DNA of 64,000 nucleotides from Candidatus Omnitrophota bacterium. GTDB lineage: Bacteria; Omnitrophota; Gorgyraeia; Zapsychrales; Fredricksoniimonadaceae. Positions within the stretch are counted from its first letter, which is position 1. The number at the start of each line of letters is the position of its first letter. The position numbers and the translations under genes were made by a program. The notes beneath the pieces were generated by a model. The model saw nothing but the letters and a program-made list of their open reading frames with translations. It did no database searches and was not told the origin of the DNA. The DNA is taken from the NCBI GenBank assembly GCA_015233675.1, contig JADFXH010000004.1, positions 136,492-200,491 of the forward strand. The letters are read 5' to 3'. Below, piece by piece: positions 31,704-51,620 of this stretch.

Positions 31704-31853
31704 CATTAACCAGAACCTCAATTAGATAGGAGTTTGACACTTTTGCCATGTTTTAGCAATCTTTTATGATCAATGATATGTCAGTTAAAGCTGGCGGGAT
31801 AATTGGCAAACATACAACTTGAAATAACACCATAAGCCCTGGCAAAAATTACT
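31704..31853. repeat. Copy 1 of a ~150-bp diverged direct repeat (copy 2 at 51219-51369; partial copy at 51583-51620)
   Basis: Alignable by eye over its whole length. Shared blocks: CATTAAC, CCTCAATTAGATAGGA, GCAATCTTTTATGATC, ATGTCAGTTAA, GGATAATTGG. Confidence 0.8.
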
Positions 31854-31926
31854 GGGGCCCTCTCGTATGAGACGAGGAATAACCTCTCTATTCTTACCAA
31901 CTTCAGGGATTGGCCTTACATAGTAA

Positions 31927-32217
31927 TTATTTATTTTCGGAAGCAGCGTCAGCTTCAGCTATTTTGCTGTATTTCTCAGGATCATTATTAAAAGTGCTCT
32001 TACACCCCGGGCAACACAGATTATACACTTTGCCATTATATTCTAACTTAAAGGCTGGCCCCATCACGCCAACTTCCTTACCGGAAACCGGACAATGTTT
32101 ATTCCCAACCTCCACTGCCTGCACTGCTGCTTGTGATGTTGATGGAGCTTGCTGAGCAAAACCCATCCCCATTGTCAAAAAAATAACCCCCAGTGTTAAC
32201 GCAATAATTCTGTTCAT
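31927..32217 (-). CDS. Secreted YHS/TRASH-like metal-binding protein (paralog of 39767..40099)
   Basis: Signal peptide MNRIIALTLGVIFLTMGMGFAQQA. GNKHCPVSGKEV...YNGKVYNLCCPGCKSTFNNDPEKY. Start set at 32217 (AGGAGA SD). Confidence 0.7.
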   Translation of the reverse strand: MNRIIALTLGVIFLTMGMGFAQQAPSTSQAAVQAVEVGNKHCPVSGKEVGVMGPAFKLEYNGKVYNLCCPGCKSTFNNDPEKYSKIAEADAASENK

Positions 32218-32336
32218 ACACGTCTCCTGTTTGTTGATCCCTTCATTGGAACCAAATTTGTGCACCCATAAATAAAGACGTTATTGCTCTTAAAAGGTTA
32301 CGCTATTTCTTAAATTTTATTTAAGGGGAAGCAACT

Positions 32337-33143
32337 TTAGGTATGCTTTGAACAAGGGCAACCGGAAGACATGCTGCAGGCGCTATGTGTCTTTTGAATC
32401 CACTGATCACGCTCATTGCATGTACAGATAGCTTCATCCAATTTAGATTTTTGAGATTCAGGGGCCTTAGCTCGGAGGTCTTGAAGAACATCTTTTTGAT
32501 AAGCATTCAGAAATTTGAGCTTAGTAAGATAATTTCTCTGCTCGCTAACAGGCAGTTTAGCTATGGCATCCAACGAGGCCCCAGCCTCATTAAGCATGGC
32601 CTTAAGGGTCTGAATATCGATATGGCCATCTTTATTAAACTTATCCACCAGCTCTTTTGATCGTCTCTCGGAAAACACTATTTTCAGTTCCATCTGGCCT
32701 TCAGGATTAACGGTCAAAAAATATTTTACCTTTTCAGTTAGAAGCTTTACTAAATATAAAGGATCCCCTGGTACACTGCTGGCGGAAACATTGATCGTTC
32801 CCCAAGAAACAAAAACAATAGCCAGAACCAAGGCAAAACCCCGCGCCCAAGCGACTGAAGGAAAGAAAAACAAACGATTGAGCCTTGCCGAAAACGTGTT
32901 TTCCTTCTGCCTTTGTATTTCTTCTCCAACTTTGATCAGACAAGACATGACCTGATGCTCTGAAATCTCTATAGGGGGCATATCATTCAACTTCTGTGTC
33001 ACAGAAAGAAGTTCTTTTAACTCCTTGGCATGGTTAGGATACTGACGAATAACATCTTCCAAAGACATGCCCCTAAGCATCTTCTCACAGCACTCATTGA
33101 ATATGTCTTCTATCGGTTTATTATTCTTATCCATACAAAACAC
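32337..33143 (-). CDS. Single-pass membrane protein, DUF5667-type anti-sigma-like, with a Cys/His-rich C-terminal tail
   Basis: N-terminal cytoplasmic segment, a TM helix (FALVLAIVFVSWGTINV) and a PGDPLYLVKLLTEKVKYFL periplasmic region. The tail is EAICTCNERDQWIQKTHSACSMSSGCPCSKHT. Confidence 0.6.
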   Translation of the reverse strand: MFCMDKNNKPIEDIFNECCEKMLRGMSLEDVIRQYPNHAKELKELLSVTQKLNDMPPIEISEHQVMSCLIKVGEEIQRQKENTFSARLNRLFFFPSVAWARGFALVLAIVFVSWGTINVSASSVPGDPLYLVKLLTEKVKYFLTVNPEGQMELKIVFSERRSKELVDKFNKDGHIDIQTLKAMLNEAGASLDAIAKLPVSEQRNYLTKLKFLNAYQKDVLQDLRAKAPESQKSKLDEAICTCNERDQWIQKTHSACSMSSGCPCSKHT

Positions 33144-33286
33144 CCTTCTTCATCATTCCATTTCATTAAACACTGATTCGAGGTGCCGAAGGTAAAACAA
33201 AATTTGCTTCTCCATACATAAAGACGACCAACCCAGCTAAAAGTTACGACCTAAATGGAGTGCTCTCGGTATTGAGAGTACGCATG

Positions 33287-36200
33287 CTAATGCTCTTTTA
33301 ATTCCGGGATAGGAAACTTACTGACGTCTACTGTGCCCTTTTTCATCTCATAATTCCATTTCCAAATACTGTATATTGCTGGATAAACTAAGAGTTCCAT
33401 AACAAAACTACTAAAAATACCCCCGATCATAGGTGCTGCGATGCGTTTCATCACATCTGCCCCAGCTCCAATTGAGAACATAATAGGAACTAGCCCCATG
33501 AACATAGCGCTGACCGTCATGAGCTTTGGCCGAATACGTTTGACAGCCCCGTGAACAATAGCTTCTTCAAGATCCGACCTCGTTTTCATCTGCCCACTAC
33601 GGATAGTTTGATAATACGCAAGATCCAAGAAAAGCATCATAAAAACACCTGTTTCCGCATCAAGCCCCATGAGCGCAATCATTCCCACCCATACCGCAAT
33701 AGACATATTATAGCCCAGCATAAAAAGAAACCACACAGCGCCAACCAAAGAAAATGGCACTGCCAGCATGATAATCCCCGCCTTAACATGAGAACGGGTG
33801 TTCATATATAACAGCATAAAAATAAAAAACAACGTAATAGGAATAACAGTTTTCAAGCGCTCCCGGACACGCAGCATATTCTCATACTGCCCGCTCCAGA
33901 TAAGCGTATAGCCGGGTGTAGATTTAAGCTCCTTTTCAACCGCACGTTTAGCATCTTCCACAAAACTGCCCACATCACGGCCAGCAACATCCACATAAAC
34001 ATAACCAGAAAGCATACCATTCTCATTACGGATCATAGCTGGTCCTTGGACCAACTCTAACTTCGCAAGCTCTCCCAAGGGCACCTGTGCCCCCTGTGGT
34101 GTGGCAACAAGGACACGCTTGAGACTTGGTATATCATTACGTAACTCGCGCAGATAACGGACATTAACCGAATAGCGTTCCCGTCCCTCTATAGTCGTCG
34201 TCACGGGTTCGCCGCCAATCGCTGACATAATAACGTCTTCAACATCTCCTGCTGTCAATCCGTAACGAGCAAGAGCATCGGAATCAATGTCAAAATCAAG
34301 AAAATACCCGCCGGTCACACGTTCCGCATAAACACTGCGGGAGCCCGCCACCCCCTTAACAATTTTCTCAATATCTACACCTATACGTTCAATCTCCTTG
34401 TAATCCGCGCCTAATATCTTGATTCCAACCGGAGTCCTAACACCAGTTGAAAGCATATCAATACGGGCCTTGATCGGCATGGTCCAAGCATTAGACACGC
34501 CCGGAAATTTTACTCTCTCATCAAGCTCATTGATAATGTCCTGCCATGTAACGCTATCATTCCAAATAGGACGAACTAATCCCTGAAAAAATTCAGGCAT
34601 CCATGATGAATACCAGCGATGGACATGACGCCACTGGCTTTCCGGTTTAAGGACGATTGTTGTTTCCATCATGGAAAAAGGTGCTGGATCAGTCGCTGTT
34701 TCAGCACGTCCTGCCTTGCCGAATACCCGCTCAACCTCCGGAACAGTTCGGATAACCTTATCCATCTGTTGAAGAAGCTTTTCTGCTTCAGTGACAGAGA
34801 TCCCTGGCAAGGTTGTGGGCATATATAGAACCGTTCCCTCATTTAATGGAGGCATAAATTCCGACCCCAGCTTAAAATAAATTGGAATCACGGAGAGAAA
34901 AAGAAGTCCTGCACAAACCAATGTCGCAAAGCGGTGTTTGAGAACAAACCTGCAAGCTGGTTCGTAAACTTTAAACAAAACTTTACTGATGGGATGTTTC
35001 TCTTCCGGGTAATATTTACCGACGGTCAGCATATTTAATAAATTTGAAATCCATCGAGGACGGAAATTGACCTTATTGACGCGTACCAAAAGCACAAACA
35101 TGGCGGGAACAAGCGTAATTGCCAGAACTGCGGCAATAGCCATCGAAAAATTCTTGCTGAAAGCAAGCGGTCTAAAAAGCCTGCCTTCCTGATCAACAAG
35201 AGTAAAAACGGGTAAAAATGCCACCGCAATCACAAGAAGCGAAAAGAATACTGATGGACCGACTTCCTTCAAGGACGTTAATAGCACGTCATGGTAATCT
35301 TCACGACGGCCCTTGGCGTCCCATAACTGAATCTTCTTATAGGCATTTTCCACCATCACGATGGCCCCATCTACAAGGACGCCTATGGATATGGCAATAC
35401 CAGCTAACGACATGATATTTGATGTCAGCTTCAAAGCTAACATGGGGATAAAGGACAAAAGCACGGCCACAGGAATGGTGGCAATAGGCACACTCGCTGA
35501 TGGGAAATGCCATAGAAAGAAAATGATCACCAAACTTACAATAATCACCTCTTCAATGAGCTGATGTTTTAGAGTATCAATAGCTCGCAAAATTAAATCT
35601 GAACGGTCATACGTTGTTACGATTTCCACTCCCGGAGGAAGTGACGCTTTTACATCTTTTATCTTCTGCTTAACCCGATCAATCACTTGAAGGGCATTCT
35701 CTCCCGTACGCATGATGACGATGCCGCCAACGGTGTCCCCTTGGCCATCCAAATCAGCAACACCACGACGGATTTCTGGCCCAATGGTTACTTTTGCCAA
35801 ATTGCGCACTAGAACCGGACGCCCCTGAGTATCCGCGCCCACCACAATATTCTCGACATCTTTGGTTGATTTGATATAACCCCGGCCGCGAACCATGAAC
35901 TCAGTCCCAGCAAATTCGACCAGACGTCCGCCCACGTCGTTGTTACTCCTGCGTACAGCGTCAATGACTTTATTAATTGATATATTGTAGGCTTGCAAAG
36001 CTACCGGATCGACGTTGACTTGATATTGTTTCTGAAATCCTCCGACGGTTGCCACTTCTGAAACGCCAGGCACAGACTGTAACCAATAGCGTAAATACCA
36101 ATCTTGGAACGATCGAAGCTGCCCCAGATCATTTTTACCGCTCTTATCCACGAGTGCGTATTGATAGACCCAGCCGACAGAAGTTGCGTCAGGGCCTAAT

Positions 36201-36580
36201 TCTGTTCTAACCCCTTCAGGCAATCTTGAGATAACTTTATTAAGATATTCAAGCGTACGGCTTCTCGCCCAGTAAAGATCTGTTCCATCCTTAAAAATGA
36301 TATAAACATACGAATATCCAAAATCCGAGAAACCCCGGACGGCTTTGACATCAGGAGCCCCTAACATGGCCGTTACAATCGGATAAGTCACCTGATCTTC
36401 AATAATGTCCGGTGAGCGGTCCCATCTGGAATAAATAATAACTTGTGTATCTGAAAGGTCAGGAATAGCATCAAGCGGGATGTTGCGCACAGCCATGACA
36501 GCACCGACAATAGCCACTGCCGTCAAAATTAAGATAAGAAATTTATTCTTTGCCGAGAATTCAATAACCCTTTTAATCAT
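33287..36580 (-). CDS. Heavy-metal-efflux RND pump (CusA/CzcA family)
   Basis: 1097-aa ORF with the 12-TM RND architecture. It overlaps the adaptor gene stop by 4 nt. Confidence 0.95.
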   Translation of the reverse strand: MIKRVIEFSAKNKFLILILTAVAIVGAVMAVRNIPLDAIPDLSDTQVIIYSRWDRSPDIIEDQVTYPIVTAMLGAPDVKAVRGFSDFGYSYVYIIFKDGTDLYWARSRTLEYLNKVISRLPEGVRTELGPDATSVGWVYQYALVDKSGKNDLGQLRSFQDWYLRYWLQSVPGVSEVATVGGFQKQYQVNVDPVALQAYNISINKVIDAVRRSNNDVGGRLVEFAGTEFMVRGRGYIKSTKDVENIVVGADTQGRPVLVRNLAKVTIGPEIRRGVADLDGQGDTVGGIVIMRTGENALQVIDRVKQKIKDVKASLPPGVEIVTTYDRSDLILRAIDTLKHQLIEEVIIVSLVIIFFLWHFPSASVPIATIPVAVLLSFIPMLALKLTSNIMSLAGIAISIGVLVDGAIVMVENAYKKIQLWDAKGRREDYHDVLLTSLKEVGPSVFFSLLVIAVAFLPVFTLVDQEGRLFRPLAFSKNFSMAIAAVLAITLVPAMFVLLVRVNKVNFRPRWISNLLNMLTVGKYYPEEKHPISKVLFKVYEPACRFVLKHRFATLVCAGLLFLSVIPIYFKLGSEFMPPLNEGTVLYMPTTLPGISVTEAEKLLQQMDKVIRTVPEVERVFGKAGRAETATDPAPFSMMETTIVLKPESQWRHVHRWYSSWMPEFFQGLVRPIWNDSVTWQDIINELDERVKFPGVSNAWTMPIKARIDMLSTGVRTPVGIKILGADYKEIERIGVDIEKIVKGVAGSRSVYAERVTGGYFLDFDIDSDALARYGLTAGDVEDVIMSAIGGEPVTTTIEGRERYSVNVRYLRELRNDIPSLKRVLVATPQGAQVPLGELAKLELVQGPAMIRNENGMLSGYVYVDVAGRDVGSFVEDAKRAVEKELKSTPGYTLIWSGQYENMLRVRERLKTVIPITLFFIFMLLYMNTRSHVKAGIIMLAVPFSLVGAVWFLFMLGYNMSIAVWVGMIALMGLDAETGVFMMLFLDLAYYQTIRSGQMKTRSDLEEAIVHGAVKRIRPKLMTVSAMFMGLVPIMFSIGAGADVMKRIAAPMIGGIFSSFVMELLVYPAIYSIWKWNYEMKKGTVDVSKFPIPELKEH

Positions 36581-37749
36581 TTACCGGCCCCCTCAAGACG
36601 GCTTTCAGCATCAATCAAGAAATTACCGCTGACAACAACCTTGTCCCCTTCTTGAAGACCGCTCAGGACTTCATAATAACCTTTAGCTTTCGAACCTAAA
36701 CTCACCTCTTTGACCTCAAAAACATCATCGTGTACGACATGGACGATTTGACGAGTCCCCGAATCTAACACCGCATCTTCCTGAACTGCCAGCTTTTCTC
36801 CTAAATCAACATCTATTCTGGCTGAGCCAAATATTTCACCACGAAGGATTTTCTCCTTATCATCGACTTTCACCCTGACCCGTACAGTCCGCGATTGTGA
36901 ATCCAAAACTGGAGCTATACCAGAAACTGCTCCCTGGAACACTTTTCCCTGGAAAGATGGAGTTTCAAACGACACTTTTTGTCCCGGGCGAACTGTAGAA
37001 GCCTCATCAGCATAAATAGCCGCATAAACCCATGCTGTTGAGGATTTTCCAGGATAATACAAACTGTCATCTGCCTTACCTGCCTTGCCTAATTCATCAA
37101 CTTCAGCATCAGTCATCCCCTGAAGATAGAGTTTTCGACGACTTGCCTCTAAAAGAGACTTGGATTGCTCCTTCAGAGAGGATTCAGAACTGTTTTCAGC
37201 AGCCGTAGATGACTTTAATGCTTCAATAAACCCCGTCTGGGCTACGTATAAATCAGGATCGAACGCAACTCTTCCTGATGCGCGAATTTCAAGGACAAGG
37301 TCACGCTTCTGAACAAGCCCTGTCTTAACTCCAATAAGTTGCTGTTGGTTAGGATTCACATGAACACCGGACATTTCATCAGCTCCCGAATTTTCATTTT
37401 CATAAACAGGAATATAATCCATCCCCATTGAATCTTTCATAAAGGTGGGCGATGTTACTGAAGGGTCCATTGGGTTTCGGTAATAAATAATTTTTTTGTC
37501 TTTCTTGGACTGGGAATCCGTCGCAGGCACCCCTATGGCATGGTCTTCACTCTTAACAAGTTTCATCCCGCATATAGGGCACTCACCTGGTTTATCTGAA
37601 ACATAATCCGGATGCATCGGGCAATGATATTTAGCCTTCATTAATTGAGAGCTTTGTGACGATTGAGAGGTGCAGTGATAAATATAAAATATGCCTGCTG
37701 CCACAGCCATAATTGATAACAAAATTATTATCCAAATATTCTTTTTCAT
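36577..37749 (-). CDS. RND periplasmic adaptor (CusB/CzcB family) with an N-terminal Cys-rich metal-binding motif
   Basis: YHCPMHPDYVSDKPGECPICGMKLV followed by a membrane-fusion-protein barrel/lipoyl pattern. Confidence 0.9.
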   Translation of the reverse strand: MKKNIWIIILLSIMAVAAGIFYIYHCTSQSSQSSQLMKAKYHCPMHPDYVSDKPGECPICGMKLVKSEDHAIGVPATDSQSKKDKKIIYYRNPMDPSVTSPTFMKDSMGMDYIPVYENENSGADEMSGVHVNPNQQQLIGVKTGLVQKRDLVLEIRASGRVAFDPDLYVAQTGFIEALKSSTAAENSSESSLKEQSKSLLEASRRKLYLQGMTDAEVDELGKAGKADDSLYYPGKSSTAWVYAAIYADEASTVRPGQKVSFETPSFQGKVFQGAVSGIAPVLDSQSRTVRVRVKVDDKEKILRGEIFGSARIDVDLGEKLAVQEDAVLDSGTRQIVHVVHDDVFEVKEVSLGSKAKGYYEVLSGLQEGDKVVVSGNFLIDAESRLEGAGK

Positions 37750-39008
37750 TTTATCTCTCCCTCGTAATCCATATCACCCCCGACCACACGTTCCAAATCA
37801 GCTTTTGAAACCGCTAATGTGGCTAATGCATCTGCATATTCCATTTGATAATCTCGGTATGCCCTAAATGCTCCAATATATTCGCTAAATTCACCTGTAC
37901 CTGATTCATAAGCGACACGCGCTGTTGTTACCGCGGACTTTATACGCGGTAAAATGCCATCTTCATAAAGCCGGACAATATCGCCAGAAGCTTTTACTTT
38001 TGCCAATGCGCTTCGTCCTTCAAAAATCACGGTATTTTCTTCAGCTTGTAAATCCGCTTGTGCAGCCTTAAACCCTGCGCGGGCTTCTGCAATTTCCGGG
38101 CCCTGTTTCCCCCAAAACCATAGTGGTATGGTCAAGCCGACCGCTCCCATCCATTGTCCCTTGCTAAAATTTCCACCCTGCTCTTCATGTTTGTACTCCA
38201 ACCTAATATCCGGCAACAGTTCTTGCTTGCTTAAAGAATACTCTGTCTTGGCACGATCCATCATGTTCCTAAAAGACTTTAACTCCGGACGATCTTGTTT
38301 TATCCTTTCAATAATATTCTCTTCGGAAGCATCTTCCTGTATTGAATCCATGCGAATATCAATATCTCCCAGATCCTTAGGCGTCATATTAAGAAGGGAT
38401 GCCAGTAAACTTTGGGCAATGATCCGGTCTTGCTCAAACTGTTTTTGGGCTACCATGACCTTATCCTGCTCTGCACCAGCCCGTAAGCTATCTACCTGTG
38501 AACCGCGGCCTGAAGAATACTTAGTCTCTGCCGCTTTTGACATCTGGCTGGCCAAATCAAGACTGTCTTTAGTTAAGGCCAACTTGCGATTAGCCACAAA
38601 CATTGACGCATAAGCTTCTTTAACTTCTTTAATAACACGTTGCTGTGTTTCCTTATATTCCTGCGCGAAAGAATCCATCTCTTGCCTGGCAGCTTTCCTT
38701 TTTAAAAAAAGCTTGGTCGGAAAAGGGATCTCCTGTGAAACTGAAAGGGTTTTCATCGGCTTACCATTGGAAGATGGAAATATCTTATCATATCCATACT
38801 CAACCATGGGATCAGGAAGATTGCGAAAAAAAGCAACACGAGCACGGGCCGCTTCATAGCGGGCACTAGCGGCTAAAATTTGAGGATTTTGAGATAAGGC
38901 TTGCTGAATCAATTCATGGAGCCCCATATGTTTACCTTCTTGGGCAAACATAACTGTCGGTGCAATCAACAACATAAATAATAGCAGCACTGTTACACGC
39001 ATTCTCAA
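37746..39008 (-). CDS. Outer-membrane efflux factor (TolC/CzcC/CusC family)
   Basis: 420 aa with a signal peptide and two tandem OEP-like repeats. Translationally coupled to the adaptor gene. Confidence 0.85.
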   Translation of the reverse strand: MRMRVTVLLLFMLLIAPTVMFAQEGKHMGLHELIQQALSQNPQILAASARYEAARARVAFFRNLPDPMVEYGYDKIFPSSNGKPMKTLSVSQEIPFPTKLFLKRKAARQEMDSFAQEYKETQQRVIKEVKEAYASMFVANRKLALTKDSLDLASQMSKAAETKYSSGRGSQVDSLRAGAEQDKVMVAQKQFEQDRIIAQSLLASLLNMTPKDLGDIDIRMDSIQEDASEENIIERIKQDRPELKSFRNMMDRAKTEYSLSKQELLPDIRLEYKHEEQGGNFSKGQWMGAVGLTIPLWFWGKQGPEIAEARAGFKAAQADLQAEENTVIFEGRSALAKVKASGDIVRLYEDGILPRIKSAVTTARVAYESGTGEFSEYIGAFRAYRDYQMEYADALATLAVSKADLERVVGGDMDYEGEIK

Positions 39009-39086
39009 TCCCCTTATAAAGTTCCCCTATTTCTAAAGACGCTCACTAACAAAGACGAAAGGAATGAAAGAAAGTTACGATGTTTT

Positions 39087-39638: not shown

Positions 39639-39766
39639 GACTTAAGAAACCTTTCTACTAACTGACTCCGACGCCATATTCATAGACCATACTCTCACCT
39701 ATAAAAATGCACAAACTTCGGATGTAGTAGAAACCCCATTAAGGAACTGTCCATGAGCTCTCCTGT

Positions 39767-40099: not shown

Positions 40100-40232
40100 T
40101 GCATTTTCCCCAATTGCATAATGGTTAAACTAATAAAATGCATATCCTATAATAACAAGACACATGAAGGGCATCAAGGATGAACAAAAAGATTAAATAC
40201 AAACAGAATGTTGCCGGATATAAAAAGGGACT

Positions 40233-40721: not shown

Positions 40722-40733
40722 TCACCACCCTTA

Positions 40734-43367: not shown

Positions 43368-43387
43368 TTTTAGAAGGATTCAATCGT

Positions 43388-44527
43388 TTATAAATCCTTC
43401 AATAAATAACTTGTACTACGCCCACCAGCATCGTCCTTGATCAGGATCTTCTTTTCGATCAATTCAAGAATATCCCGCAATGCAGTATCATGAGAACATT
43501 TGGCGATCTTGGCCCATTTTGAAGATGTAAGCTTCCCTTCAAAACCTTCAAACAACTTATTAATCACCATTATCTGGCGCTTATTAAAAGAGCCTTCAGG
43601 ATAAGTTTCCCAAAAACGTGCTTTCTTAAAAACTCCTGCCAATGTCTTTTCAGTCGTATCTATGGCCCTATCCAGACAGGCTAAAAACCACTTAATCCAG
43701 ATAGTTATATCCATGTCCTCATTCTTTTGAATTTTTTCAAGCACGTCATAATAGGCATTCCTTTCCTGACGTATCTGAACAGACATGCTATAAAAACGTT
43801 GTGCGCTGCCATCGGCACGTGCAAGTTGCATATCCGTGATGGCCCGCGCAATACGCCCGTTACCATCATCAAAAGGGTGAATTGTCACAAACCACAAATG
43901 AGCAATGGCCGCTTTAAGCACAAGATCAATCCCAGCGTCTTGATTAAACCAAGCCATGAAATTCTTCATCTCATTATTAAGACGTGATGCTTGAGGGGCT
44001 TCAAAATGAACTTTTTGACGTCCTATTGGCCCGGAAATAACTTGCATAGGGCCATGTTTATCATCACGCCAGCTGCCGACAACGATTTTTTGCATACCGC
44101 TTCGACCAGTTGGAAAAAGACTCGCATGCCAACCGAATAAACGATCTTTGGTCAAAGATTTCTTAAATTTCTGTGTCGCATCCAACATCATCTCAACCAC
44201 CCCATCGACATTACGATCAGAAGAAACAAGCCCAGCAATGTCCATCCCCAATTTTCTAGCGATAGATGAGCGCACCTGAGCAGGATTAAGAATTTCTCCT
44301 TCAATCTCGCTACTCTTTAAAACATCAAGAGTAAGTGTTTGTAGGATAGCTTCCGAACGCAAAGGAAATCCTAAGGATTCCATGCGACCGATCAGCCGCC
44401 CCTGCCGATTGCGCACCTCTCCCAGCAAAGACATGATCTGTTGATCATCCCAAATGAACTTTGGCCAATTATTTAATTGATGTATATAATGCATTATTCT
44501 ACGCACTCCTTGCGTAGAATATACCAC
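43388..44527 (-). CDS. Fic-family protein (N-terminal Fic_N-like region, C-terminal winged-helix-like region)
   Basis: Active site HPFDDGNGRIARA and inhibitory-helix motif SSEIEG. Confidence 0.9.
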   Translation of the reverse strand: MVYSTQGVRRIMHYIHQLNNWPKFIWDDQQIMSLLGEVRNRQGRLIGRMESLGFPLRSEAILQTLTLDVLKSSEIEGEILNPAQVRSSIARKLGMDIAGLVSSDRNVDGVVEMMLDATQKFKKSLTKDRLFGWHASLFPTGRSGMQKIVVGSWRDDKHGPMQVISGPIGRQKVHFEAPQASRLNNEMKNFMAWFNQDAGIDLVLKAAIAHLWFVTIHPFDDGNGRIARAITDMQLARADGSAQRFYSMSVQIRQERNAYYDVLEKIQKNEDMDITIWIKWFLACLDRAIDTTEKTLAGVFKKARFWETYPEGSFNKRQIMVINKLFEGFEGKLTSSKWAKIAKCSHDTALRDILELIEKKILIKDDAGGRSTSYLLKDL

Positions 44528-44779
44528 TCATTCACCGCATACGCAAGAACTGATCTCGGGAAATACTTTCGACTTTAGGTTCGAACCCCCCAGAGGTTCA
44601 AGCCCTTCACAATCGGTTAGAACTTCTTCAAATGGCTGGAAAATCAATCACTTGGGAAGATTTATACAACAAAAATAGAAAATGGGGTCGCTGGCGGGGG
44701 AGGGTCAGAACCTGTTTAATGGCCTCAACTGCCCCCCTGACATGATGAACTAAAGGTCAGCAACGACAGGAATACCCGT

Positions 44780-47700
44780 TTAACTTGCTGTTAAAGAGTT
44801 TTCTTGAACTTTTAACCCAAGGAATTGCTTTAAGTTCGTCATCGGCCGGATATTGATAATCACCGGCACAACGCCTGAAAAATCACCAGACCTAAACTGC
44901 TCGAGTATGGCCGGGCCAAACTTCATCTCAATGGCCTGCCCATCCCGGAAAACATCCAAGCCCATGTTGCGGGCATTCATGTCAATACCACCCCGTGTCT
45001 TAGAGATCATAGCTTCATCGTATTCAGAACGGCTTTGTGGAAGTGCCCGTAAAGGCGAGTGAGTTGGAGCTTGGGACGGAGCCAACAAAGAATGACGGGA
45101 GCCATCTTGATAACGGCTTAAAACTGCCTTAAGTTTATCGAAATCAAAATCGCAATATTTTTTTTGACTCAACCGTTGCATTTCGGGCATAGTGCGAATC
45201 GAATGAATTCTAAGCTCGCTTTCATCAGAAATATAAAATTCAAAACCCATAGGGCTCTCGGATATGCCTCCATCAGGGCCATTATCATCATAAACTATAT
45301 GGAGCGTCTCCACCGCGTGCGGCACGAGTCCCAGCATTGGATTTGCATCGAGATACCCATACAAATTAAACGCAACACGTTTTTGGTACCACTCGCTATC
45401 ATTAGGTTCAATGCCCATAAAAAGCTCGAAACTATCGTATCCACGTGCGTGTGCGCGAGGACTTCGATCTTTAAAAATAGCTTCCAACTCGTTGTGAACA
45501 TTTAAAATATCCTCATGGAATTTATGAACTTTATCAACAATCCCATCGAGGGACTCCTGATCCAAATTGGCAAATTCTTTTTGCATGTTTGCGACAAACC
45601 TTGCAGTTCTATCCGCATTCCATTTGATTTTTCCCAATTCCTGGAAGACATACGCCAAAACATCCGTATAAAGAGGATCATGTGCCCCTAACACCTCGGT
45701 GTGCAGTCTTCCATTTTCCTCCAATATCCCGAAACGATTAAGAATCAAACGGGTCCCATCTTTCCTGTTGACTCGCAGAACATCCTTTTGCGGTAAATAA
45801 GCAACTGATTCCGGAAAAATGTCCCCTGATTCAGCGGATGAATAGATGATAGCTCCGGATGCATTGAGAATCAGGCACCTCTGGTGATAGGGATCATTCA
45901 CTAAGGCAAACTGATAAAGCGTGGGAGCTTCTCCATATTTTTGTTTCCGGCCAAAACCAGTAATATCTGCGGTGGCTGCGTATTGTTTCAAGACCAAAAA
46001 AAGATCCCTGCGCATGGTTTCTTCCTCATTTCTTCCCTGTTTCGATACCCCACCACCTAATTTACCGGGAATCAGACTTCTAATCACTGTTTCTCCGTTC
46101 AAGCTAAAAGTCCTCAAGACATTGTCACGCATTTGAGAAATTCGTCCATTCTTTTTATCATACTGAATTTCGTCACCGGGCCGCCAGCCAAACAAATCTT
46201 CATTTGTAGATTTATCTTTTTTTAGTATTAATTTAATGGAATATTGTACAAGCGTGTCTGATGGCACCTCTGTTTTCATTTGGTCATCCCATTTATAGCT
46301 CCTGAGATAGCTTAATTTAAACTCAATTACGAATTTATTTTCTCCCTTCTGATTGGATGAAATAAAACGCCGCTCCTCGGTTCGAATAGGAATGCCGGGG
46401 CCACCTCGGCCATTAGGTTTATATTGAGCACTGAACCCAGGCAAAAAAACATCATATTCGCTAAAACCACCTAATCTTTCTTGATCCCGAATTATTTTTT
46501 CTTTAAATTTATTTTCTTTAAGCCATGTCTCAAATTCCGATATGGACTTTAATACCGCATCTACATTCAAATCGTGCAAATCATTCGTCTCATGTGTCCG
46601 GACAAAAAAATCCCCGTCTTCCGGTCCTTTGGGGCCCTTGGCTTCTCTATTAAAATCATTGTGCAAATCAGATTCCCCTTCTTCAACGAAGTTTGTCGTT
46701 CCTTCATTCTTCAGCGGGCGTTTTTGAGGGCCTACCATCTTTTTGGCTTGAACGATGAAATGTCCAAAAACATGCAAATCTTCGGATGAATCTTTAAGCA
46801 TTCCCAGGGCAGTGTCCGCCACATGCGCATAGCCATATTCCAAACTCTGGGAAGGAATATAATTCTGATAGTGTTGGATGCCCACCCTCATCCGGGTAAA
46901 GTTTCGTCTTGCCTGTTCATCATTACCCAAAACGGTCTTTTTTAATTCAATAATGTCAGCTAATTGGGGCTCATCCGGTAAAGCCGCAAGAGATTCCAAA
47001 ATATTCAGGATTGTTTTCCTGGCTTCAAGTAATTGAGCAGCGCCTTCATTAGCACTAGTTAACAGAGACTGAATAAAATTGATTACCGACTTTACGTTGT
47101 CAGGAATAATTTGGCCAATGGTGTCTTTGTCGATACTCCCAAAAGTGTCGATCAGATTGATATTCTTGGCAGCCATTTCCTTAATTTGCGCGCTTAATCC
47201 ACCATAATAATCAAAGTGGTCACGAATGTACTCAACCGCAAGTAAAAAAGGAGCTCCTTTCTTGATTCGAGGAGCCAACCTTTGATTATTATAAAATGAC
47301 AGGGAAGAGCGAAACAGTTTAACAAGTTGATGCGCTTCTGAAGCTCCTTTTTTTCCCGCTTCTTCTAATTGAGCCAAAATTTTATCCTGATCCAGAGAAG
47401 GTGTTTGCAAAAAGCGGTTGATTTCAATGACAAGGACTGCCATTTCCTCAGCCAACTGTTTGTATTCGTTGGGCACAACGGATAAAGGAATCTTCACTTC
47501 TTCACGTATACGCTGGCCTTCTGTATAAAGACTTCCCAGAACATTGCCATCCATTATCATTGCCGAGTCTAGTTTCTCGGTCGTATCGTAACGCTGAATA
47601 TTTGCCGAGACCATGGCCATATCACCATCAGTAGACATCGCCAAATCCTCGCCAGGCTCTAATTTTGATTCCCGCTTAATAAGTTCACTTGGTTTTCGAT

Positions 47701-48736
47701 CCCATACCTTCCATCCTCCTGAAAAATATTTTCGTGGAATCAGCCGCTTGCTTCCCTCATCGATGTCTTCCTTGATGTAATTAAAAACCCCTTTCTTGTA
47801 AGCTTTTAAATACTGCTCATAAATCTTTTCTTTAACTGCCGGGTCATTAGATAACACACCGCCTGTCTTTCCTTTATTACTATAAACCTGATTAAGTAAA
47901 GCATCCTTCAAGGCCAACTTATACCACGATGCTAAAATCATTGAATAAAACATCTGCCGTAACAGAGCAAAATTCTCACCTTGATTGACCTCTTTTTCAA
48001 GCTCGGGAATAATGATTTCGCGCACAACCTGGGAAGCCATCGCATGTTCCTTGTTTACATCGTTACGGAGCTGACCTATAGCCAAATGTTTTTCCAGCGA
48101 TAAATAATCCTCTTCCAGCATGACCTTTAAATGTGAGCCTACCACATAACCGACATTATTGCGTTCTAAAACCTTGGCCTTATCTGCCACGATCCATACC
48201 TTATTAAACGTATTTACCGGAATATTCGTCACCCCATACATCTCACGAGCTTTTGTATACACATTGTCCCAAAACTTCTTGCCTAATTCTTTTTCAGGAT
48301 AAATAAGAGATGCGGTCAATTGCTTGAGGATGTAATCCTGCGCTAACATGTCCCGGCCCATTTCGGTTTGTCCCAACTCTTGCGGGATCATGCGGTCTTT
48401 CTCATAAGGACTTAAGTTAACCCAAAGATCGTCTTCTTTGATCGTCAATGCGGCTAAAAAATACTTGATCAACTTTTGGGATTCTGCCTTAAACTCAGTA
48501 GAGTTAATCCTAAAGCCTGACTTGCCTGTATCCAAAATAAAATCAAATAAAAGAGGGTTGTCGGGGTGGACCTTCAGGCCTTTCATCATGACAGGTGCGT
48601 AAGCCGCAGAGACATTGACCAAGCTCCCGGGCGCAGGCAAACGAAAGCCTTGAGCTTGGGCCAAAGGCATAGGCCCAAAGGTATTAATTAAGAATGCTAC
48701 TAGGATCAATATGTGAATTAATGGGATTCGGCTCAT
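44780..48736 (-). CDS. Large (1,318 aa) exported modular protein, paralog of 17625..24527 in its N-module and C-tail only
   Basis: Signal peptide MSRIPLIHILILVAFLINTFGPMPLAQA. The N-module is alignable block by block (KGLKVHPDNP.FDFILD, LIKYFLA.LTI.E.DLWVNLSPYEK.R, TEMGRD.LA.DY.LKQ.TASL.YPE, IPVNTFNKVW, PRKYFSGG). The C-tail is RGGIDMN...VVPVIINIRPMTNLKQFLGL. Confidence 0.9.
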   Translation of the reverse strand: MSRIPLIHILILVAFLINTFGPMPLAQAQGFRLPAPGSLVNVSAAYAPVMMKGLKVHPDNPLLFDFILDTGKSGFRINSTEFKAESQKLIKYFLAALTIKEDDLWVNLSPYEKDRMIPQELGQTEMGRDMLAQDYILKQLTASLIYPEKELGKKFWDNVYTKAREMYGVTNIPVNTFNKVWIVADKAKVLERNNVGYVVGSHLKVMLEEDYLSLEKHLAIGQLRNDVNKEHAMASQVVREIIIPELEKEVNQGENFALLRQMFYSMILASWYKLALKDALLNQVYSNKGKTGGVLSNDPAVKEKIYEQYLKAYKKGVFNYIKEDIDEGSKRLIPRKYFSGGWKVWDRKPSELIKRESKLEPGEDLAMSTDGDMAMVSANIQRYDTTEKLDSAMIMDGNVLGSLYTEGQRIREEVKIPLSVVPNEYKQLAEEMAVLVIEINRFLQTPSLDQDKILAQLEEAGKKGASEAHQLVKLFRSSLSFYNNQRLAPRIKKGAPFLLAVEYIRDHFDYYGGLSAQIKEMAAKNINLIDTFGSIDKDTIGQIIPDNVKSVINFIQSLLTSANEGAAQLLEARKTILNILESLAALPDEPQLADIIELKKTVLGNDEQARRNFTRMRVGIQHYQNYIPSQSLEYGYAHVADTALGMLKDSSEDLHVFGHFIVQAKKMVGPQKRPLKNEGTTNFVEEGESDLHNDFNREAKGPKGPEDGDFFVRTHETNDLHDLNVDAVLKSISEFETWLKENKFKEKIIRDQERLGGFSEYDVFLPGFSAQYKPNGRGGPGIPIRTEERRFISSNQKGENKFVIEFKLSYLRSYKWDDQMKTEVPSDTLVQYSIKLILKKDKSTNEDLFGWRPGDEIQYDKKNGRISQMRDNVLRTFSLNGETVIRSLIPGKLGGGVSKQGRNEEETMRRDLFLVLKQYAATADITGFGRKQKYGEAPTLYQFALVNDPYHQRCLILNASGAIIYSSAESGDIFPESVAYLPQKDVLRVNRKDGTRLILNRFGILEENGRLHTEVLGAHDPLYTDVLAYVFQELGKIKWNADRTARFVANMQKEFANLDQESLDGIVDKVHKFHEDILNVHNELEAIFKDRSPRAHARGYDSFELFMGIEPNDSEWYQKRVAFNLYGYLDANPMLGLVPHAVETLHIVYDDNGPDGGISESPMGFEFYISDESELRIHSIRTMPEMQRLSQKKYCDFDFDKLKAVLSRYQDGSRHSLLAPSQAPTHSPLRALPQSRSEYDEAMISKTRGGIDMNARNMGLDVFRDGQAIEMKFGPAILEQFRSGDFSGVVPVIINIRPMTNLKQFLGLKVQENSLTAS

Positions 48737-48933
48737 ATTATTTAAAATACCTATATTAAAGTATCAATAGTTCTTCACTCCCTATAAGTATACAATATTT
48801 ATATCGACAAAAGCCATCAAGGAAGAAATTAAATGAGCACTTTAATCAGAAGTTTAAAGTCCCGTCAAGAGTAAACGGGAGGATTTGTAACCTGCATCTT
48901 TACAAATAGTTACGATAAGAAAAAATTTGGGGC

Positions 48934-49072
48934 GGGTGACCGCAGTATCAAGGGATAAACCTATCTTTCCCCACCATTTTCTGTCCTATTTGTCCAGTCG
49001 ACAAAAGGCTAAAATTTCAATAACTCTTTGAAACATTGATGGATGTAAAATGTCCACCCTTTAAAGGTGGAC
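48934..49072. repeat. Copy 2 of the ~145-bp repeat (copy 1 at 42189-42337); it overlaps the 3' end of sigma-like gene copy 2
   Basis: See copy 1. It ends in the hairpin GTCCACC-CTTTAAA-GGTGGAC, which contains the stop codon of 49061..49489. Confidence 0.85.
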
Positions 49073-49489
49073 AAGGTCCTCTTCTGGATCATATCTGTCC
49101 CACTCTGGGCTTAATTGTTGACTTTCCCTCTTCAGCTCTGCTTTCAAAGAATCAAGAATGAAACCATCGATCCTCTTCCAAATATACGAAGCAAAACGGA
49201 CAGGCTTAAAGTTACCCTCTTTATCACGATATCTCAAATTATACGTTTTAATTTTCTCGTAAAGAATAAACGTGGCATCGGATAAAATCTCTTCACCAAA
49301 GCCCTCGACATACACCGGGAAAGTTTTCTTATAAATCCTAAAGATAACAAATTTAGTATGACGAAGAACCAGCTCTTCAATTTCTTTCTTGGAACCCTTT
49401 TTTGCTTTAGCTATAAGGCGACGTTCTTCAAGGAGAGAAATTCGGGGGTATTTTGGTAAGGTGTGAAGATAATCAATTAACACTTTCAA
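49061..49489 (-). CDS. Sigma-70 region-1.2/2-only protein (142 aa), copy 2
   Basis: Differs from copy 1 at roughly one nucleotide in ten by eye over ~430 bp. The C-terminal ~15 aa diverge. Confidence 0.65.
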   Translation of the reverse strand: MKVLIDYLHTLPKYPRISLLEERRLIAKAKKGSKKEIEELVLRHTKFVIFRIYKKTFPVYVEGFGEEILSDATFILYEKIKTYNLRYRDKEGNFKPVRFASYIWKRIDGFILDSLKAELKRESQQLSPEWDRYDPEEDLVHL

Positions 49490-49495
49490 AAAGAA

Positions 49496-50581
49496 TCAAA
49501 TCTTGCGATATCTCGTTGTAGCTCCAAGCCCAATCCGTTCGATCTTTTTTAAAACCAGCAACTTGTTCAATACCTGTTTAACTGTTGGACGGGCCACCTT
49601 TGTCTTCGCACAAATCTCCCCCGGAGTCGTTTCATCAACACCCTGCAAATACTTCCAAATCACAAGCTGTTTAGGAGAAAGAAGTTTGTCTACACTTTCC
49701 TTCGACAGCAGCTGGATCGCCATTTCTGCCTGCTTGTGAATAACTGATAAAAAGAAATCAAGCCAAGGAGAAATATCCGGCTTGCAGCTGCGCATTGTCT
49801 TCTGACTCTTACGCAAAGCAATATAATAATCCGCCTTACTATCCTCGATAAGCTTCTCATGTGATAGATAGAGCACATACTCATACCCGTTCTTTAGCAA
49901 CAGGAGATTCGTTAAAACACGAGAAAGCCGTCCATTACCATCCTGAAAGGGATGGATCAAGAGAAACTCAACAAGAAAATTACCAATAATGATCAGAGGA
50001 TGATATCTTTTCTCATCAAAGGCCTTTCTAGTAACTTCAACCAACTCCAACATTTCCTTAGGCGTCAAATATGCCGGTGTTGTATCGAACAAAAGACCAA
50101 CCGATTTCCCTGCTGTGTCGATCATATGAACCTTATTTTCGCTCTTCTTATATTCTCCCCGATGCAACTTATCTTTATCCACGTATTTCAACAACTCTTT
50201 ATGAAAATGTTTAATCGTACTCTCTGAAATAGATATACCATCCCATGACTCAAAAATATTACTGAGAAGTTCATAATATCCTCGCACTTCCTGCTTGTCA
50301 CGGTCAGCAAACTTTTGAACTGATAATCCTCGCATAAGTCTCTCTATGTCTTCATCAGATAGACTGGAGCCTTCAATACGGGTGGAAGCGCCAGTTGATG
50401 TGATCAAAACCGAACGCTTAAGGCGTCCTAATACCTGTGGATTAAGTGTTGCCCCTGATATCCATCGCCCCTTTAGCTCATCAATAAGGGCAGTCTTAGA
50501 CCATATCTCTGGGGGAAGATCCTTTAATCTTTGATAAAATTGACTTTTCATAACTCCTCCGATATATTCAACTATATCCAA
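49496..50581 (-). CDS. Fic-family protein with a C-terminal winged-helix (MarR-like) region
   Basis: Active site HPFQDGNGRLSRVL and inhibitory motif STRIEG. Only distantly related to the Fic at 43388..44527. Confidence 0.9.
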   Translation of the reverse strand: MDIVEYIGGVMKSQFYQRLKDLPPEIWSKTALIDELKGRWISGATLNPQVLGRLKRSVLITSTGASTRIEGSSLSDEDIERLMRGLSVQKFADRDKQEVRGYYELLSNIFESWDGISISESTIKHFHKELLKYVDKDKLHRGEYKKSENKVHMIDTAGKSVGLLFDTTPAYLTPKEMLELVEVTRKAFDEKRYHPLIIIGNFLVEFLLIHPFQDGNGRLSRVLTNLLLLKNGYEYVLYLSHEKLIEDSKADYYIALRKSQKTMRSCKPDISPWLDFFLSVIHKQAEMAIQLLSKESVDKLLSPKQLVIWKYLQGVDETTPGEICAKTKVARPTVKQVLNKLLVLKKIERIGLGATTRYRKI

Positions 50582-50653
50582 TTATATCTGATTATATCCA
50601 ATTGTCAAACTTAACAATCAGACATAATGCTAGTATCCAATTGTATCCAGCGA

Positions 50654-51151
50654 TTATCGCTCCTTCCAAGGCAGATCAGGATCTCCCGGTGACCAAATAA
50701 GAACACCGTCTCCATCCTTCGCTGCTTTAACAGCCATCTCCAAGGCATCCAAACCATCATCATGTGCCCCTTTAGGGAAAAATTTCATCTGTTCTAGAAG
50801 CATATGATGTTTCTTGGAAAATTGAATAGCCCCACTTTTGACCATTGGCTGCAAGGCTTCTATACGCGCCCCCTTGTCTCCAGTATGATTTATCCCCTCA
50901 ATAGGAATACTAACACCCTTTTCCCGGCTGCGTTGCTCTAAAATATCCTTCACAAACTCCTGAAATTGATTTGTTTCAAAATAAAATCTTTGGTAATTAC
51001 GATATCCGCCATATGTGATAAGCGTATTTATAAGGTGATCTGGGAGTCGAATTGCTAAATCTGCATCCAATACATAAAGCTTCCCTCCTTAGCAATTGTA
51101 ATAATGGCCGAATAATCTCCCCGTCTCTTATTTTTTCCGACACTTGGGTCA
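50654..51151 (-). pseudogene. Remnant of a phage terminase large subunit (nuclease half only, with one frameshift)
   Basis: ..FPKGAHDDGLDALEMAV.. and GKLYVLDADL in one frame. DPSVGKNKRRGDYSAIITIAKEG lies in another frame just upstream. The ATPase half is absent. Confidence 0.7.
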
Positions 51152-51218
51152 TATCAATTCCACTATGTCTAAATAAAAGCTCTATTGAATCCAAAACTAA
51201 ATAAATTTAAGATATTTG

Positions 51219-51369
51219 CATTAACTAAGACCTCAATTAGATAGGATTCTGCCACTTTTAACCAATTTTGGCAATCTTTTATGATCTATGGAATGTCAGT
51301 TAATGATGGTAGGATAATTGGTAAGAATGCAGCTCGAAGTATCGCCCTAAGTCCTAACAAAATCGACAG
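51219..51369. repeat. Copy 2 of the ~150-bp diverged direct repeat (copy 1 at 31704-31853)
   Basis: See copy 1. Confidence 0.8.
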
Positions 51370-51373
51370 ATGC

Positions 51374-51410
51374 AAAAAGCCTTGGGGATCAATGATCACC
51401 AAGGCTTTTT
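51374..51410. terminator. Bidirectional rho-independent terminator
   Basis: AAAAAGCCTTGG-GGATCAATGATCA-CCAAGGCTTTTT. Confidence 0.75.
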
Positions 51411-51536
51411 CCTATCTTTTGGGTTTCCCCTAATAAAGATAAATGTGGTTTTGCTCGGGACTCTAATTCAAATTATTTTTTCTTTAAGTTTCGTCCCCCT
51501 CCTGTCAGGTTTTGTAAAATTCTCTCTTTTGACGTT

Positions 51537-51620
51537 CTTAGTTAATTAAGAAATATTTGAAAAAATGGCATTAACTACGGGCCATTAACTAGGATTCAAA
51601 TTGATAGGAAATGCCATTTT
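51537..51620. other. Cluster of TTAGTTAAT/ATTAACTA half-sites next to the serine recombinase gene; candidate recombination site
   Basis: CTTAGTTAAT (51537-51546) and CATTAACTACG (51569-51579) form an imperfect inverted repeat. They are followed by a partial copy of the 150-bp repeat start (CATTAACTAGGATTCAAATTGATAGGA, 51583-). Confidence 0.35.

Follow-up and report, generated by a model that had tools for sequence, protein, structure and literature searches.

Diverged direct repeats as probable junction modules of a tandem island array at a tRNA-His hot spot in a Candidatus Omnitrophota bacterium

The 64-kb stretch of DNA analysed here (the window) contains two long direct repeats that enclose about 19.5 kb of accessory genes, and the question is whether these repeats are the borders of an inserted island or a conserved regulatory sequence. 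The initial annotation had judged them to be alike over their whole length at roughly three-quarters identity, and blastn bore this out, with 77.8% identity over 144 bp between 31704-31847 and 51219-51362 (E 1.1e-28); the four shared blocks that it named were found in both long copies, and blastn gave no second comparable match in the rest of the 64-kb window. It had also described a third, partial copy at 51583-51620. This copy is real, because the Smith-Waterman score of c2 against c3 was 39, which was reached by 0 of 1000 shuffles (mean 17.8, sd 2.5), and because an HMM of the other four units, from which c3 was left out, matched 51560-51642 with E 3.9e-7; but it is not partial, since the full-length unit covers 51569-51805. 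Judged by its sequence, c3 is thus an independent third member of the family. The end of the second copy also had to be moved, from 51369 to 51443, as this unit runs on through a terminator and a spacer. The window therefore holds three units (c1, c2 and c3), all in direct orientation on the minus strand, and alignment defines the repeat as a non-coding module of about 240 bp.

Read on the minus strand, a unit consists of a junction ending in CCCCA, a spacer (about 30 nt between junction and terminator), an intrinsic terminator, a block-conserved body of about 150 bp and one or two TAGTTAATG motifs. Short conserved blocks make up the body; promoter-like hexamers overlap in it on both strands, TGGCA is repeated, and CATTAACTR occurs three times, twice directly and once inverted. 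In unit c1 (31690..31852, minus strand; nhmmer extent 31684-31858) the A of the junction CCCCA is at 31853, the spacer is shortened, and two TGGTTAA(T/C)G motifs follow the body; the intrinsic terminator segment of about 75 bp was lost by an internal deletion seen in the five-way alignment, and the junction and spacer, CCCCAGTAATTTTTGCYAGGG, are common to this unit and the unit of L056. In unit c2 (51219..51443, minus strand) the junction and spacer lead to a bidirectional terminator at 51374-51410, after which come the body and a single TAGTTAATG motif. In unit c3 (51569..51805, minus strand), which is full-length and diverged, CCCCA at the junction is followed by TTTATTG; the terminator is at 51734-51765, after the spacer, and the body comes before two TAGTTAATG motifs. 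Two metagenomic relatives (L055 and L056) carry one unit each, so the set known comprises five units. In the alignment all five start directly after CC(C/A)CA, and their similarity stops sharply after a TTAATG motif. The three window units are longer and more diverged than the usual att core, and exact blocks shared between units are at most 17 bp at 78% identity. The unit of L056 is 83% identical to c2 and 77% identical to c1.

The position of the units was indicated by the relatives. In L055 the unit, which is 93.5% identical to c2 over 231 bp, begins exactly at the 3' end of a tRNA-His(gtg) gene, and similarity to the window stops there. Three other loci (L057, L058 and L064) have the order cupin, tRNA-Arg, tRNA-His, four genes and then engB-DUF1456-SLT, with a gap of about 2.4 kb between tRNA-His and engB that is filled by different genes, and L060 and L066 have again other content at this position. 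The cupin protein is the same in L057 and L060, but their sequences part right after CACCCCATT, which indicates strain-level variation. The interval between tRNA-His and engB is thus polymorphic for presence and absence of genes among the relatives. The window contains the same conserved chromosomal flank (engB, DUF1456 and SLT; 28613..30191, minus strand), which has 80-90% nucleotide identity to that of L057 and L064 and in relatives lies downstream of tRNA-His. Together with the unit at the tRNA-His end in L055, the synteny of this flank is strong but indirect evidence that all DNA to the right of about 30.2 kb, past the 64-kb end of the window, is hot-spot cargo. No tRNA gene was found within the 64-kb window, and the tRNA-His gene is predicted to lie to its right. 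Directly upstream of c2 in the tRNA sense there is a weak remnant resembling a tRNA-His 3' end (51444..51473, minus strand), with 14 of 27 matches in the junction-fixed register (binomial p ~0.005); about 0.5% of window 30-mers equal it, so this sequence resemblance is suggestive only. No such remnant was found beside c1.

The gene content between the long copies was as first described. Pfam scans of island segment A (31853..51218, minus strand) identified YHS, czc-type efflux, an ECF sigma factor, ars, a TA pair, two Fic modules, a 1318-aa gene and a terminase remnant, and no recombinase gene. The comparison of related genomes that the initial annotation had proposed showed that L057, L058 and L064 lack the segment, with its czc, ars, Fic and 1318-aa genes, at the orthologous position. 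Left of c1 the annotation had seen core-like genes, which is right for engB, syntenic in the relatives, but not for the MATE efflux gene (30225..31640, minus strand), which is not syntenic and separates c1 from the conserved flank. MATE is missing between IMS and engB in L057, and close homologues (79.7-86.4% nucleotide identity; proteins 90-92% aa) occur in unrelated contexts without a unit, so this gene is probably cargo of an older segment. On the other side, segment B (51835..64000, minus strand) runs off the window and has partial homology to the L067 element; Pfam scans found in it a large serine recombinase, a small serine resolvase, AbiGi, a Rep-like gene with tandem 72-bp repeats and two tyrosine recombinases. 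Cargo of the czc type adjoins c1 in the window, and YHS, an 81-aa gene and czc-type cargo are found beside the unit in L056. In L067, YHS and the 81-aa gene lie within about 10 kb upstream of a 90%-identical serine recombinase and probably belong to the same element. No composition step was found at the units, as GC was 0.37-0.46 throughout and not distinct from the flank.

Five copies with defined ends and with differing neighbours on both sides could also be a small non-autonomous mobile or dispersed repeat of the MITE type, present three times here by chance. We consider this highly improbable, because the aligned unit ends and flanks showed neither terminal inverted repeats nor target-site duplications, and the three window copies are in one orientation and all within hot-spot cargo. 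Neither the remaining 44 kb of the window nor 660 kb of related loci contained a copy, only chance matches were obtained from 185,579 species-representative genomes, JGI metagenomes gave just two matches, and viral, phage and plasmid collections gave none.

The large serine recombinase gene (51717..53642, minus strand; 641 aa; Pfam Resolvase, Recombinase and Zn_ribbon_recom) points to the likely place of recombination. Its last 29 codons or so come from unit c3, with the junction 88 bp inside the 3' end of the gene. About 80 homologues were found, and the C-terminal tail is different in every one, being 6 to 31 aa long in five loci compared. A conserved DNA site, GTTCGCACAGGGCAACATTAGCGACCCCA (51806..51834, minus strand), lies inside the 3' end of the gene; the pattern GTTCGCA..GG..AAC....G.GACCCCA is common to the window, L067, L068, L069 and L072 in two reading frames, and the five recombinase loci share nothing past CCCCA, which in the window is the edge of c3. 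Core-like genes come after the site in four of the five. Its conservation suggests that GTTCGCACAGGGCAACATTAGCGACCCCA is likely the half-site of the recombinase and the crossover point; counts of inverted half-site symmetry about a central dinucleotide were at most 11 of 26 and none stands out. The tRNA-proximal edge of each unit coincides with a recombination breakpoint. The conserved site and the tRNA-His end both have ACCCCA at the breakpoint and a distal GTTC, and we infer that the tRNA-His 3' end is the target of the recombinase; among the homologous recombinase loci, none could be traced to a tRNA-His at the far end. The GTTC is 5 bp nearer the breakpoint in the tRNA, which fits a ZD motif that is displaced by 5 bp between attP and attB (PMC3783163), the match being a 4-mer only.

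Taken together, these results led us to regard the units as modules that mark the joints between integrative elements arrayed in tandem at a hot spot immediately downstream of tRNA-His, a reading to which we give a probability of about 0.6. We read c1 and c2 as the bounds of one decayed island without a recombinase of its own. The interpretation of the long copies as island borders was therefore essentially right, since the relatives are without the czc, ars, Fic and 1318-aa genes and the tRNA-proximal unit edges coincide with breakpoints, but the copies lie at joints inside a larger array, which extends from about 30.2 kb past 64 kb and includes the third full unit, and are not borders between island and core.

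The alternative offered in the initial annotation was a conserved promoter, a leader or a small RNA next to a terminator hairpin at each long copy. The hairpin of c2 is strong (-26.6 kcal/mol, z -6.0) and so is that of c3 (-17.1 kcal/mol, z -4.0), but the hairpin next to c1 was not significant (z -0.05). Where the terminator is present its structure was retained (z -6.0, -4.9 and -4.0), with two compensatory pairs in L056 and, in c3, an unrelated sequence at the equivalent position. The covariation check on RNA structure gave compensatory pairs in the terminator only, on four sequences; outside this hairpin the body has one isolated c1-specific double change per strand and is otherwise invariant or broken, a comparison of four sequences that has low power. 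An Rfam search of the whole window gave nothing at gathering score and only chance-level matches at E up to 10, so a discrete structured RNA is unsupported by Rfam or covariation. The downstream genes all differ, which excludes a riboswitch-like leader of a single gene family. The distal neighbours of the units are MATE, the terminase remnant, a 369-aa ORF, DUF4238 and an 87-bp stub, and such variable neighbours are the pattern expected of cargo and not of a single regulated gene. What stands of the alternative is the real terminator and the promoter-like sequences, with which a regulatory role within the junction module is likely, and the body would most likely be a protein-binding and regulatory region for the first cargo genes.

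The unit could nevertheless be mainly a portable regulatory cassette (terminator plus promoter, operator and leader), or a plus-strand sRNA gene of about 120 nt, that was duplicated for its usefulness, with its position at joints being secondary. A plus-strand TTGCCA-16-TATGAT has an equivalent position in c1, L055 and L056 (TTAACC in c2), about 90 nt before a bidirectional terminator, and on the minus strand GAGG and ATG come after TTGCCA-17-(TG)CAGAAT. What all five units conserve is exactly the promoter and motif region, and for neutral non-coding DNA the 93.5% identity between c2 and the unit of L055 looks high when other genes shared by the genomes have 80-90%. But both promoter versions are missing from c3 and the terminator from c1, the putative plus-strand transcribed part is less conserved than its upstream region, and the downstream genes are unrelated. 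No Rfam family appeared even at E up to 10, RNAalifold energies were weak with compensatory changes only in the terminator, and short-ORF substitutions read from the alignment had no third-codon-position bias. This explanation, which we hold to be rather unlikely, also leaves unexplained both sharp edges of the unit, one of which falls at the end of the tRNA and at the site of the recombinase.

It is also conceivable that each unit belongs to the tRNA-proximal DNA and that crossover took place at the distal CATTAAC motifs, so that island A carries c1 at its far end and entered by site-specific or homologous (Campbell-type) recombination of its own unit with a chromosomal c2. This is the model of the initial annotation taken literally. 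The sharp end of similarity after TTAATG, even between c2 and L055, would fit it, and so would the spacer variant GTAATTTTTGCYAGGG shared by c1 and L056, both of which have YHS and czc tRNA-proximally, and the position of c2 and the L055 unit, each of which adjoins tRNA-His or a tRNA-like remnant. However, the junction-adjacent sequences of c1 and L056 differ, with two additional ORFs there in L056; nucleotide identity of the czc genes is no more than about 67-69%, so that the linkage could be recurrent cargo; and the L056 unit is overall nearer to c2 (83%) than to c1 (77%). Moreover, the edge that matches the demonstrated recombinase breakpoint is the tRNA-proximal one, and 78% identity with blocks of at most 17 bp is a poor substrate for homologous recombination. 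We therefore consider this model improbable, more so than the regulatory cassette. With only five units known, the assignment of each unit to one side of its joint is provisional.

A junction module in a tandem array has partial counterparts in known systems. Attachment sites of the lambda type, used by tyrosine integrases, have non-coding arms of about 200-250 bp beside the crossover, made up of short protein-binding motifs that are repeated both directly and in inverted form. By analogy the unit resembles such an arm in size, place and motif layout, but no arm-binding integrase is linked to it, the tyrosine recombinases of segment B being 3.5-5 kb off. The archaeal integrases of the SSV type are tyrosine recombinases with attP inside the integrase gene, which is split in two on integration. 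They are alike in having the attachment site within recombinase coding sequence and in the alteration of the gene end by integration, whereas here the recombinase is a serine enzyme and only the last 6-31 codons are exchanged.

The closest likeness is to tandem island arrays at tRNA genes, as described with Islander/TIGER (Mageeney et al. 2020, PMC7192596), which share the strain-variable content, the stacked segments with direct junction repeats, the recombinases at segment ends, the decay of older segments and, most probably, the hot spot at the tRNA 3' end. As in this class, direct repeats were found at the segment ends, but an integrase was not found in each segment, as segment A has none. 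The repeat is also different, being a module of about 240 bp downstream of the tRNA with 78% identity and not a tRNA 3' fragment, the best-supported recombinase here is a large serine one, and the tRNA itself is outside the window. Large serine recombinases were assigned to t(m)RNA genes in only 4.9% of cases in that study, as a computational inference, and this use of a tRNA gene by serine integrases was called previously unreported and had not been experimentally proven before (PMC7192596). With the large serine integrases of A118/LI, phiC31 and Bxb1 (Rutherford et al. 2013, PMC3783163), the recombinase shares the Resolvase, Recombinase and zinc-ribbon domains and a sharp gene-adjacent breakpoint; at five loci related elements are alike as far as the site and diverge after it. 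The sites of such integrases are 40-50 bp and leave no long repeats (PMC3783163). Here the putative half-site lies inside the coding 3' end of the recombinase, so that the protein tail varies with the flank, and a homologous 240-bp module recurs at successive joints.

The analysis showed the repeat, the architecture of the unit, the terminator, a unit adjacent to tRNA-His in one relative, a syntenic flank and a breakpoint at the recombinase, and the history of the array may be pictured from them. The unit would start at the tRNA-His end (...ACCCCA), the point where elements with the large serine recombinase recombine, and its terminator would block read-through from the tRNA operon. Successive integrative elements would have inserted here, each joint retaining or bringing one unit, which would give three diverged direct units. 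Unit c3 would adjoin the serine recombinase of segment B, the youngest visible segment, c2 would head segment A, whose own recombinase would have been lost, and c1 would head the oldest remnant, the MATE gene, abutting the conserved flank at engB. The units would travel with the elements as an arm on the far side of the crossover. Repeats are not a product of canonical large serine integrases, which also do not use attL or attR again (PMC3783163), so for tandem accretion either the units must restore a usable attB or other recombinases must take part; segment B has two tyrosine recombinase genes.

As a whole, this is a fairly ordinary genomic-island feature of a known kind. For the family of large serine recombinases it raises a possibility that we put forward tentatively and would not yet bet on, namely that the attP half-site lies inside the coding 3' end of the recombinase's own gene, where it would be kept as DNA across two frames, that the target is the extreme 3' end of tRNA-His, and that the elements bring a replacement for the module downstream of the tRNA (terminator plus control region), which would re-create the landing site and so may give rise to tandem islands.

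Formal alignment bore out the two long direct copies described in the initial annotation: blastn within the window matched 31704-31847 with 51219-51362 at 77.8% identity over 144 bp (E 1.1e-28), and no other comparable repeat match was found in the 64-kb window. The gene content between these copies also agreed with the list given there. The copies exist as described, but their length of ~150 bp was an underestimate, as alignment of the three window copies with those of two relatives from one metagenome scan (L055 and L056) gave a longer unit; on the minus strand, the copies run from 51805 to 51569 (c3), from 51443 to 51219 (c2) and from 31852 to 31690 (c1). The proposed third copy beside the serine recombinase, c3, was upheld by a shuffle test, in which 0 of 1000 shuffles (mean 17.8, sd 2.5) scored as high as the local c2-c3 alignment (39), and by an independent HMM, built from the four other units with c3 left out, which matched 51560-51642 (E 3.9e-7). 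The host is a Candidatus Omnitrophica MAG, the GC content of the window is 41%, and all genes between 27 and 57 kb are on the minus strand.

Alignment of the five units showed the same order on the minus strand, namely a junction CC(C/A)CA, a spacer of ~30 nt, a hairpin with a T run, and a body of ~150 nt made of conserved blocks. The distal part carries TAGTTAATG in one or two copies, with an inverted copy CATTAACTGAC ~75 nt upstream. The hairpin of c2 had a folding energy of -26.6 kcal/mol (z -6.0), compared with -19.8 (z -4.9) for L056 and -17.1 (z -4.0) for c3. The c2 stem was kept in L056 through two compensatory changes, and in c3 a sequence unrelated to that stem was folded at the same position. 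A hairpin had been claimed beside each long copy, which held for c2 but not for c1, where the 75-bp hairpin segment was lost and the hairpin described next to the copy folded no better than shuffled sequence (z -0.05). The part conserved in all five units was the distal 85 bp, with interdigitated hexamers resembling promoters (TTGCCA-16-TATGAT on the plus strand, TTGCCA-17-CAGAAT on the minus strand), together with TGGCA repeats and CATTAACTR motifs. A free-standing regulatory cassette or small RNA would fit these promoter-like elements but would leave the two sharp unit edges unexplained. Relative to the putative small RNA of the plus strand, the conserved 85 bp falls in the upstream region and not in the body.

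Rfam gave no family match for the whole window at the gathering score, and with the threshold relaxed to E 10 it gave chance-level matches only for the two copy regions (best SAM-II, 15 bits, E 4.2). The earlier suggestion of a small RNA gained nothing from the covariation check, a low-power comparison of four sequences: RNAalifold found weak consensus energies on either strand, and compensatory changes were confined essentially to the terminator. A small protein encoded in the unit was rejected, as substitutions were spread over all codon positions, stops differed between copies, and the plus-strand ORF was without a ribosome-binding site. A tRNA/tmRNA scan of the window found none.

A MITE-like repeat is unlikely, since the unit has no terminal inverted repeats, no copies elsewhere in the window or in 660 kb of related loci, only chance matches in species-representative genomes, and none in viral, phage or plasmid collections. 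A gapped pattern gave 29 matches in 185,579 genomes, and all of these were chance matches, one of them within coding sequence of a different Omnitrophota MAG. In viral contigs, exact 16-mers gave seed-length chance matches only, the unit and P-site patterns gave no match, and no close relatives of the recombinase were found. No match was obtained by blastn against the phage and plasmid collections, and the MATE, YHS and recombinase proteins had no exact counterpart on record.

The position of the unit became clearer in relatives. In L055, the unit is 93.5% identical to c2 and its first base directly adjoins the 3' end of tRNA-His(gtg), which is preceded by tRNA-Pro, PtsP, a cupin gene and tRNA-Arg; similarity between L055 and the window ends at the tRNA end. 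The cupin was used as bait for the same locus in other group members. In three of them (L057, L058 and L064) the order was cupin, tRNA-Arg, tRNA-His, DUF5674, a 94-aa gene, S24 peptidase and IMS polymerase, continuing with engB, a short YHS gene, DUF1456, KTSC and SLT. The window engB, DUF1456 and SLT genes (28613-30191) have 80-90% DNA identity to the genes of these relatives, and the left flank of c1 is therefore the conserved region downstream of tRNA-His. Relative to these three genomes, the DNA from ~30.2 kb to past the right end of the window is inserted. L057 and L060, a strain of the same species, have an identical cupin protein and diverge two to three bases past the tRNA end, so the site is variable even between strains. 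After tRNA-His, L060 carries a different element (8557-8720), likewise opening with a spacer, a terminator hairpin and four ATGTTGA repeats at 11-nt spacing, followed by a Rep-like ORF. A search for tRNA-His remnants in the window found one weak remnant, beside c2 (matching at 14 of 27 positions, p about 0.005); another match, a 12-mer near 48928, had the look of coincidence. Base composition across the window gave no island signal.

The MATE gene (30225-31640) has homologues with 90-92% protein identity in unrelated contexts without the unit (L001-L003), each starting 13 nt behind its upstream gene, and in L057 it is absent from the interval that separates IMS from engB. The gene is thus outside the conserved flank and behaves as cargo, not core. 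A guanidine/MATE-type riboswitch was rejected on the same homologues, which lack the unit and are separated from the upstream gene by 13 nt, and was also contradicted by the other units, which precede unrelated genes; the genes after the units are different in every case.

The 641-aa gene beside c3 encodes a large serine recombinase with about 80 homologues, and four homologue loci (L067, L068, L069 and L072) were compared with the window. The 91% DNA identity between L067 and the window ends at 51805/51806, 88 bp before the stop codon. The site GTTCGCA[CG][AG]GG..AAC....G.GACCCCA was common to all five loci, with nothing common after it; this 29-bp motif ending GACCCCA is at 51806-51834 in the window and near the recombinase stop codons in the other four. 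In the window, L067 and L069 it is translated as ..FAQGN.SDP.., and in L068 and L072 it is translated in the neighbouring frame (..VRRGQQEGPH.., ..VRTGEHLRPH..), which means that it is conserved as DNA, not protein. The C-terminal tails past the site are unrelated and have 6 to 31 residues. Core-like genes directly follow the site in L067, L069 and L072, and L068 lies at one terminus of a conjugative element that encodes TrbI, a VirB11-like ATPase, a relaxase and a coupling protein. The tRNA-His end is ...CTCACCCCA, then TT, the recombinase site end is ...GCGACCCCA, usually then T, and every unit begins directly after that shared end point. The GTTC in the tRNA T-loop is 5 bp closer to the breakpoint than the GTTC in the recombinase site. 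A shift between attB and attP half-sites has been described for serine integrases (Rutherford et al. 2013, PMC3783163), and the 5-bp shift may fit it, a hint only given its 4-mer basis. Inverted symmetry of the att half-sites reached at most 11 of 26 positions, and no count stood out. A search toward the far ends of homologous recombinase elements met no tRNA within 10 kb and reached none of these ends. An alternative crossover at the distal CATTAAC motifs, which would assign the unit to the tRNA-proximal side, draws support from the abrupt break at the distal unit edge and from a spacer variant common to c1 and L056, but the proximal edge is the one matching the demonstrated breakpoint.

In our interpretation, the unit forms the junction module in a series of integrative elements arrayed in tandem at tRNA-His. 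In the tRNA direction, the order would be the predicted tRNA-His, segment B (51835 to past the window end at 64000) with the serine recombinase at its end, c3, an 87-bp stub apparently carrying the weak tRNA-like remnant, c2, segment A (31853-51218), c1, MATE and engB. The 19.5-kb segment was thus rightly proposed as an island, segment A being bounded by c1 and c2 in array order. Segment A is considered decayed because it has no recombinase and holds a terminase remnant. In L056, YHS, an 81-aa gene and czc-type cargo adjoin the unit, and in L067, YHS and the 81-aa gene are within about 10 kb upstream of a 90%-identical recombinase, probably in one element with it; this suggests that segment A formerly ended in such a recombinase. 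The terminator would protect newly arrived DNA against read-through from the tRNA, and a probable role of the body is control of the first cargo genes. Canonical serine integrases create no repeats and do not re-use hybrid sites (PMC3783163), so either the units would restore a usable target or other recombinases may have helped; two tyrosine recombinase genes are present in segment B. Each unit would either arrive with an element or stay behind after it.

Several further features were recorded. In segment B, the tyrosine recombinase genes are adjacent overlapping paralogues (55066-56719; 143-nt repeat, 71% identity) followed by two short ORFs (56724-57523), and the equivalent position in L067 is occupied by just one such gene. 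Four tandem ~72-bp repeats (57905-58178, 67-82% identical) are flanked by a Rep-like ORF on one side (57074-57523, minus, PF23343, E 2e-5) and by a 596-aa sigma-70-like ORF on the other (58198-59988, plus), and they look like iterons of a putative segment B replication origin. At 61367-61470, a 29-nt motif GATACCCCC..GGGT..GAATTGGCAAAA occurs in two copies (86% identical, 75 bp apart). Both copies are in the gap 60898-61519, which in minus sense follows an AbiGi-like gene (61520-62230) and precedes a small resolvase gene (60382-60897). Segment A contains a duplication of a Fic gene together with its small partner ORF and the non-coding DNA downstream (42242-44527 and 48977-50581; 300 nt at 90%, 97 nt at 84%). 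The gene for the 1318-aa protein, without a Pfam match, is situated between the two copies. Beside the L055 unit, 369-aa and 352-aa ORFs without Pfam match (5046-7210) adjoin another serine recombinase of 534 aa, a distant relative (27% identity) in opposite orientation.

Tandem island arrays that have repeated junctions and occupy tRNA genes are well known, and serine recombinases are rare at tRNA genes, a usage called unreported (Mageeney et al. 2020, PMC7192596). In contrast to those arrays, the repeated piece here is a diverged 240-bp downstream module, not a tRNA fragment, the enzyme with the best link to it is of the serine recombinase type, and the recombinase site is inside its own coding 3' end. 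These three differences are interesting, though the tRNA is outside the window and the evidence is indirect. The recombinase family, with a site in its own 3' end resembling the tRNA-His terminus, is a candidate for targeting of tRNA; if confirmed, it would be one of few documented serine integrases targeting a tRNA gene and might supply new integrase/att pairs. The accessory DNA of this uncultured Omnitrophota genome is delimited by the result, and its biology is in other respects that of ordinary genomic islands. Metal-resistance, arsenic, Fic/toxin and defence-like genes, amounting to ~34 kb or more, would be tRNA-His hot-spot cargo, and the unit may serve as a practical marker for such joints in related MAGs.
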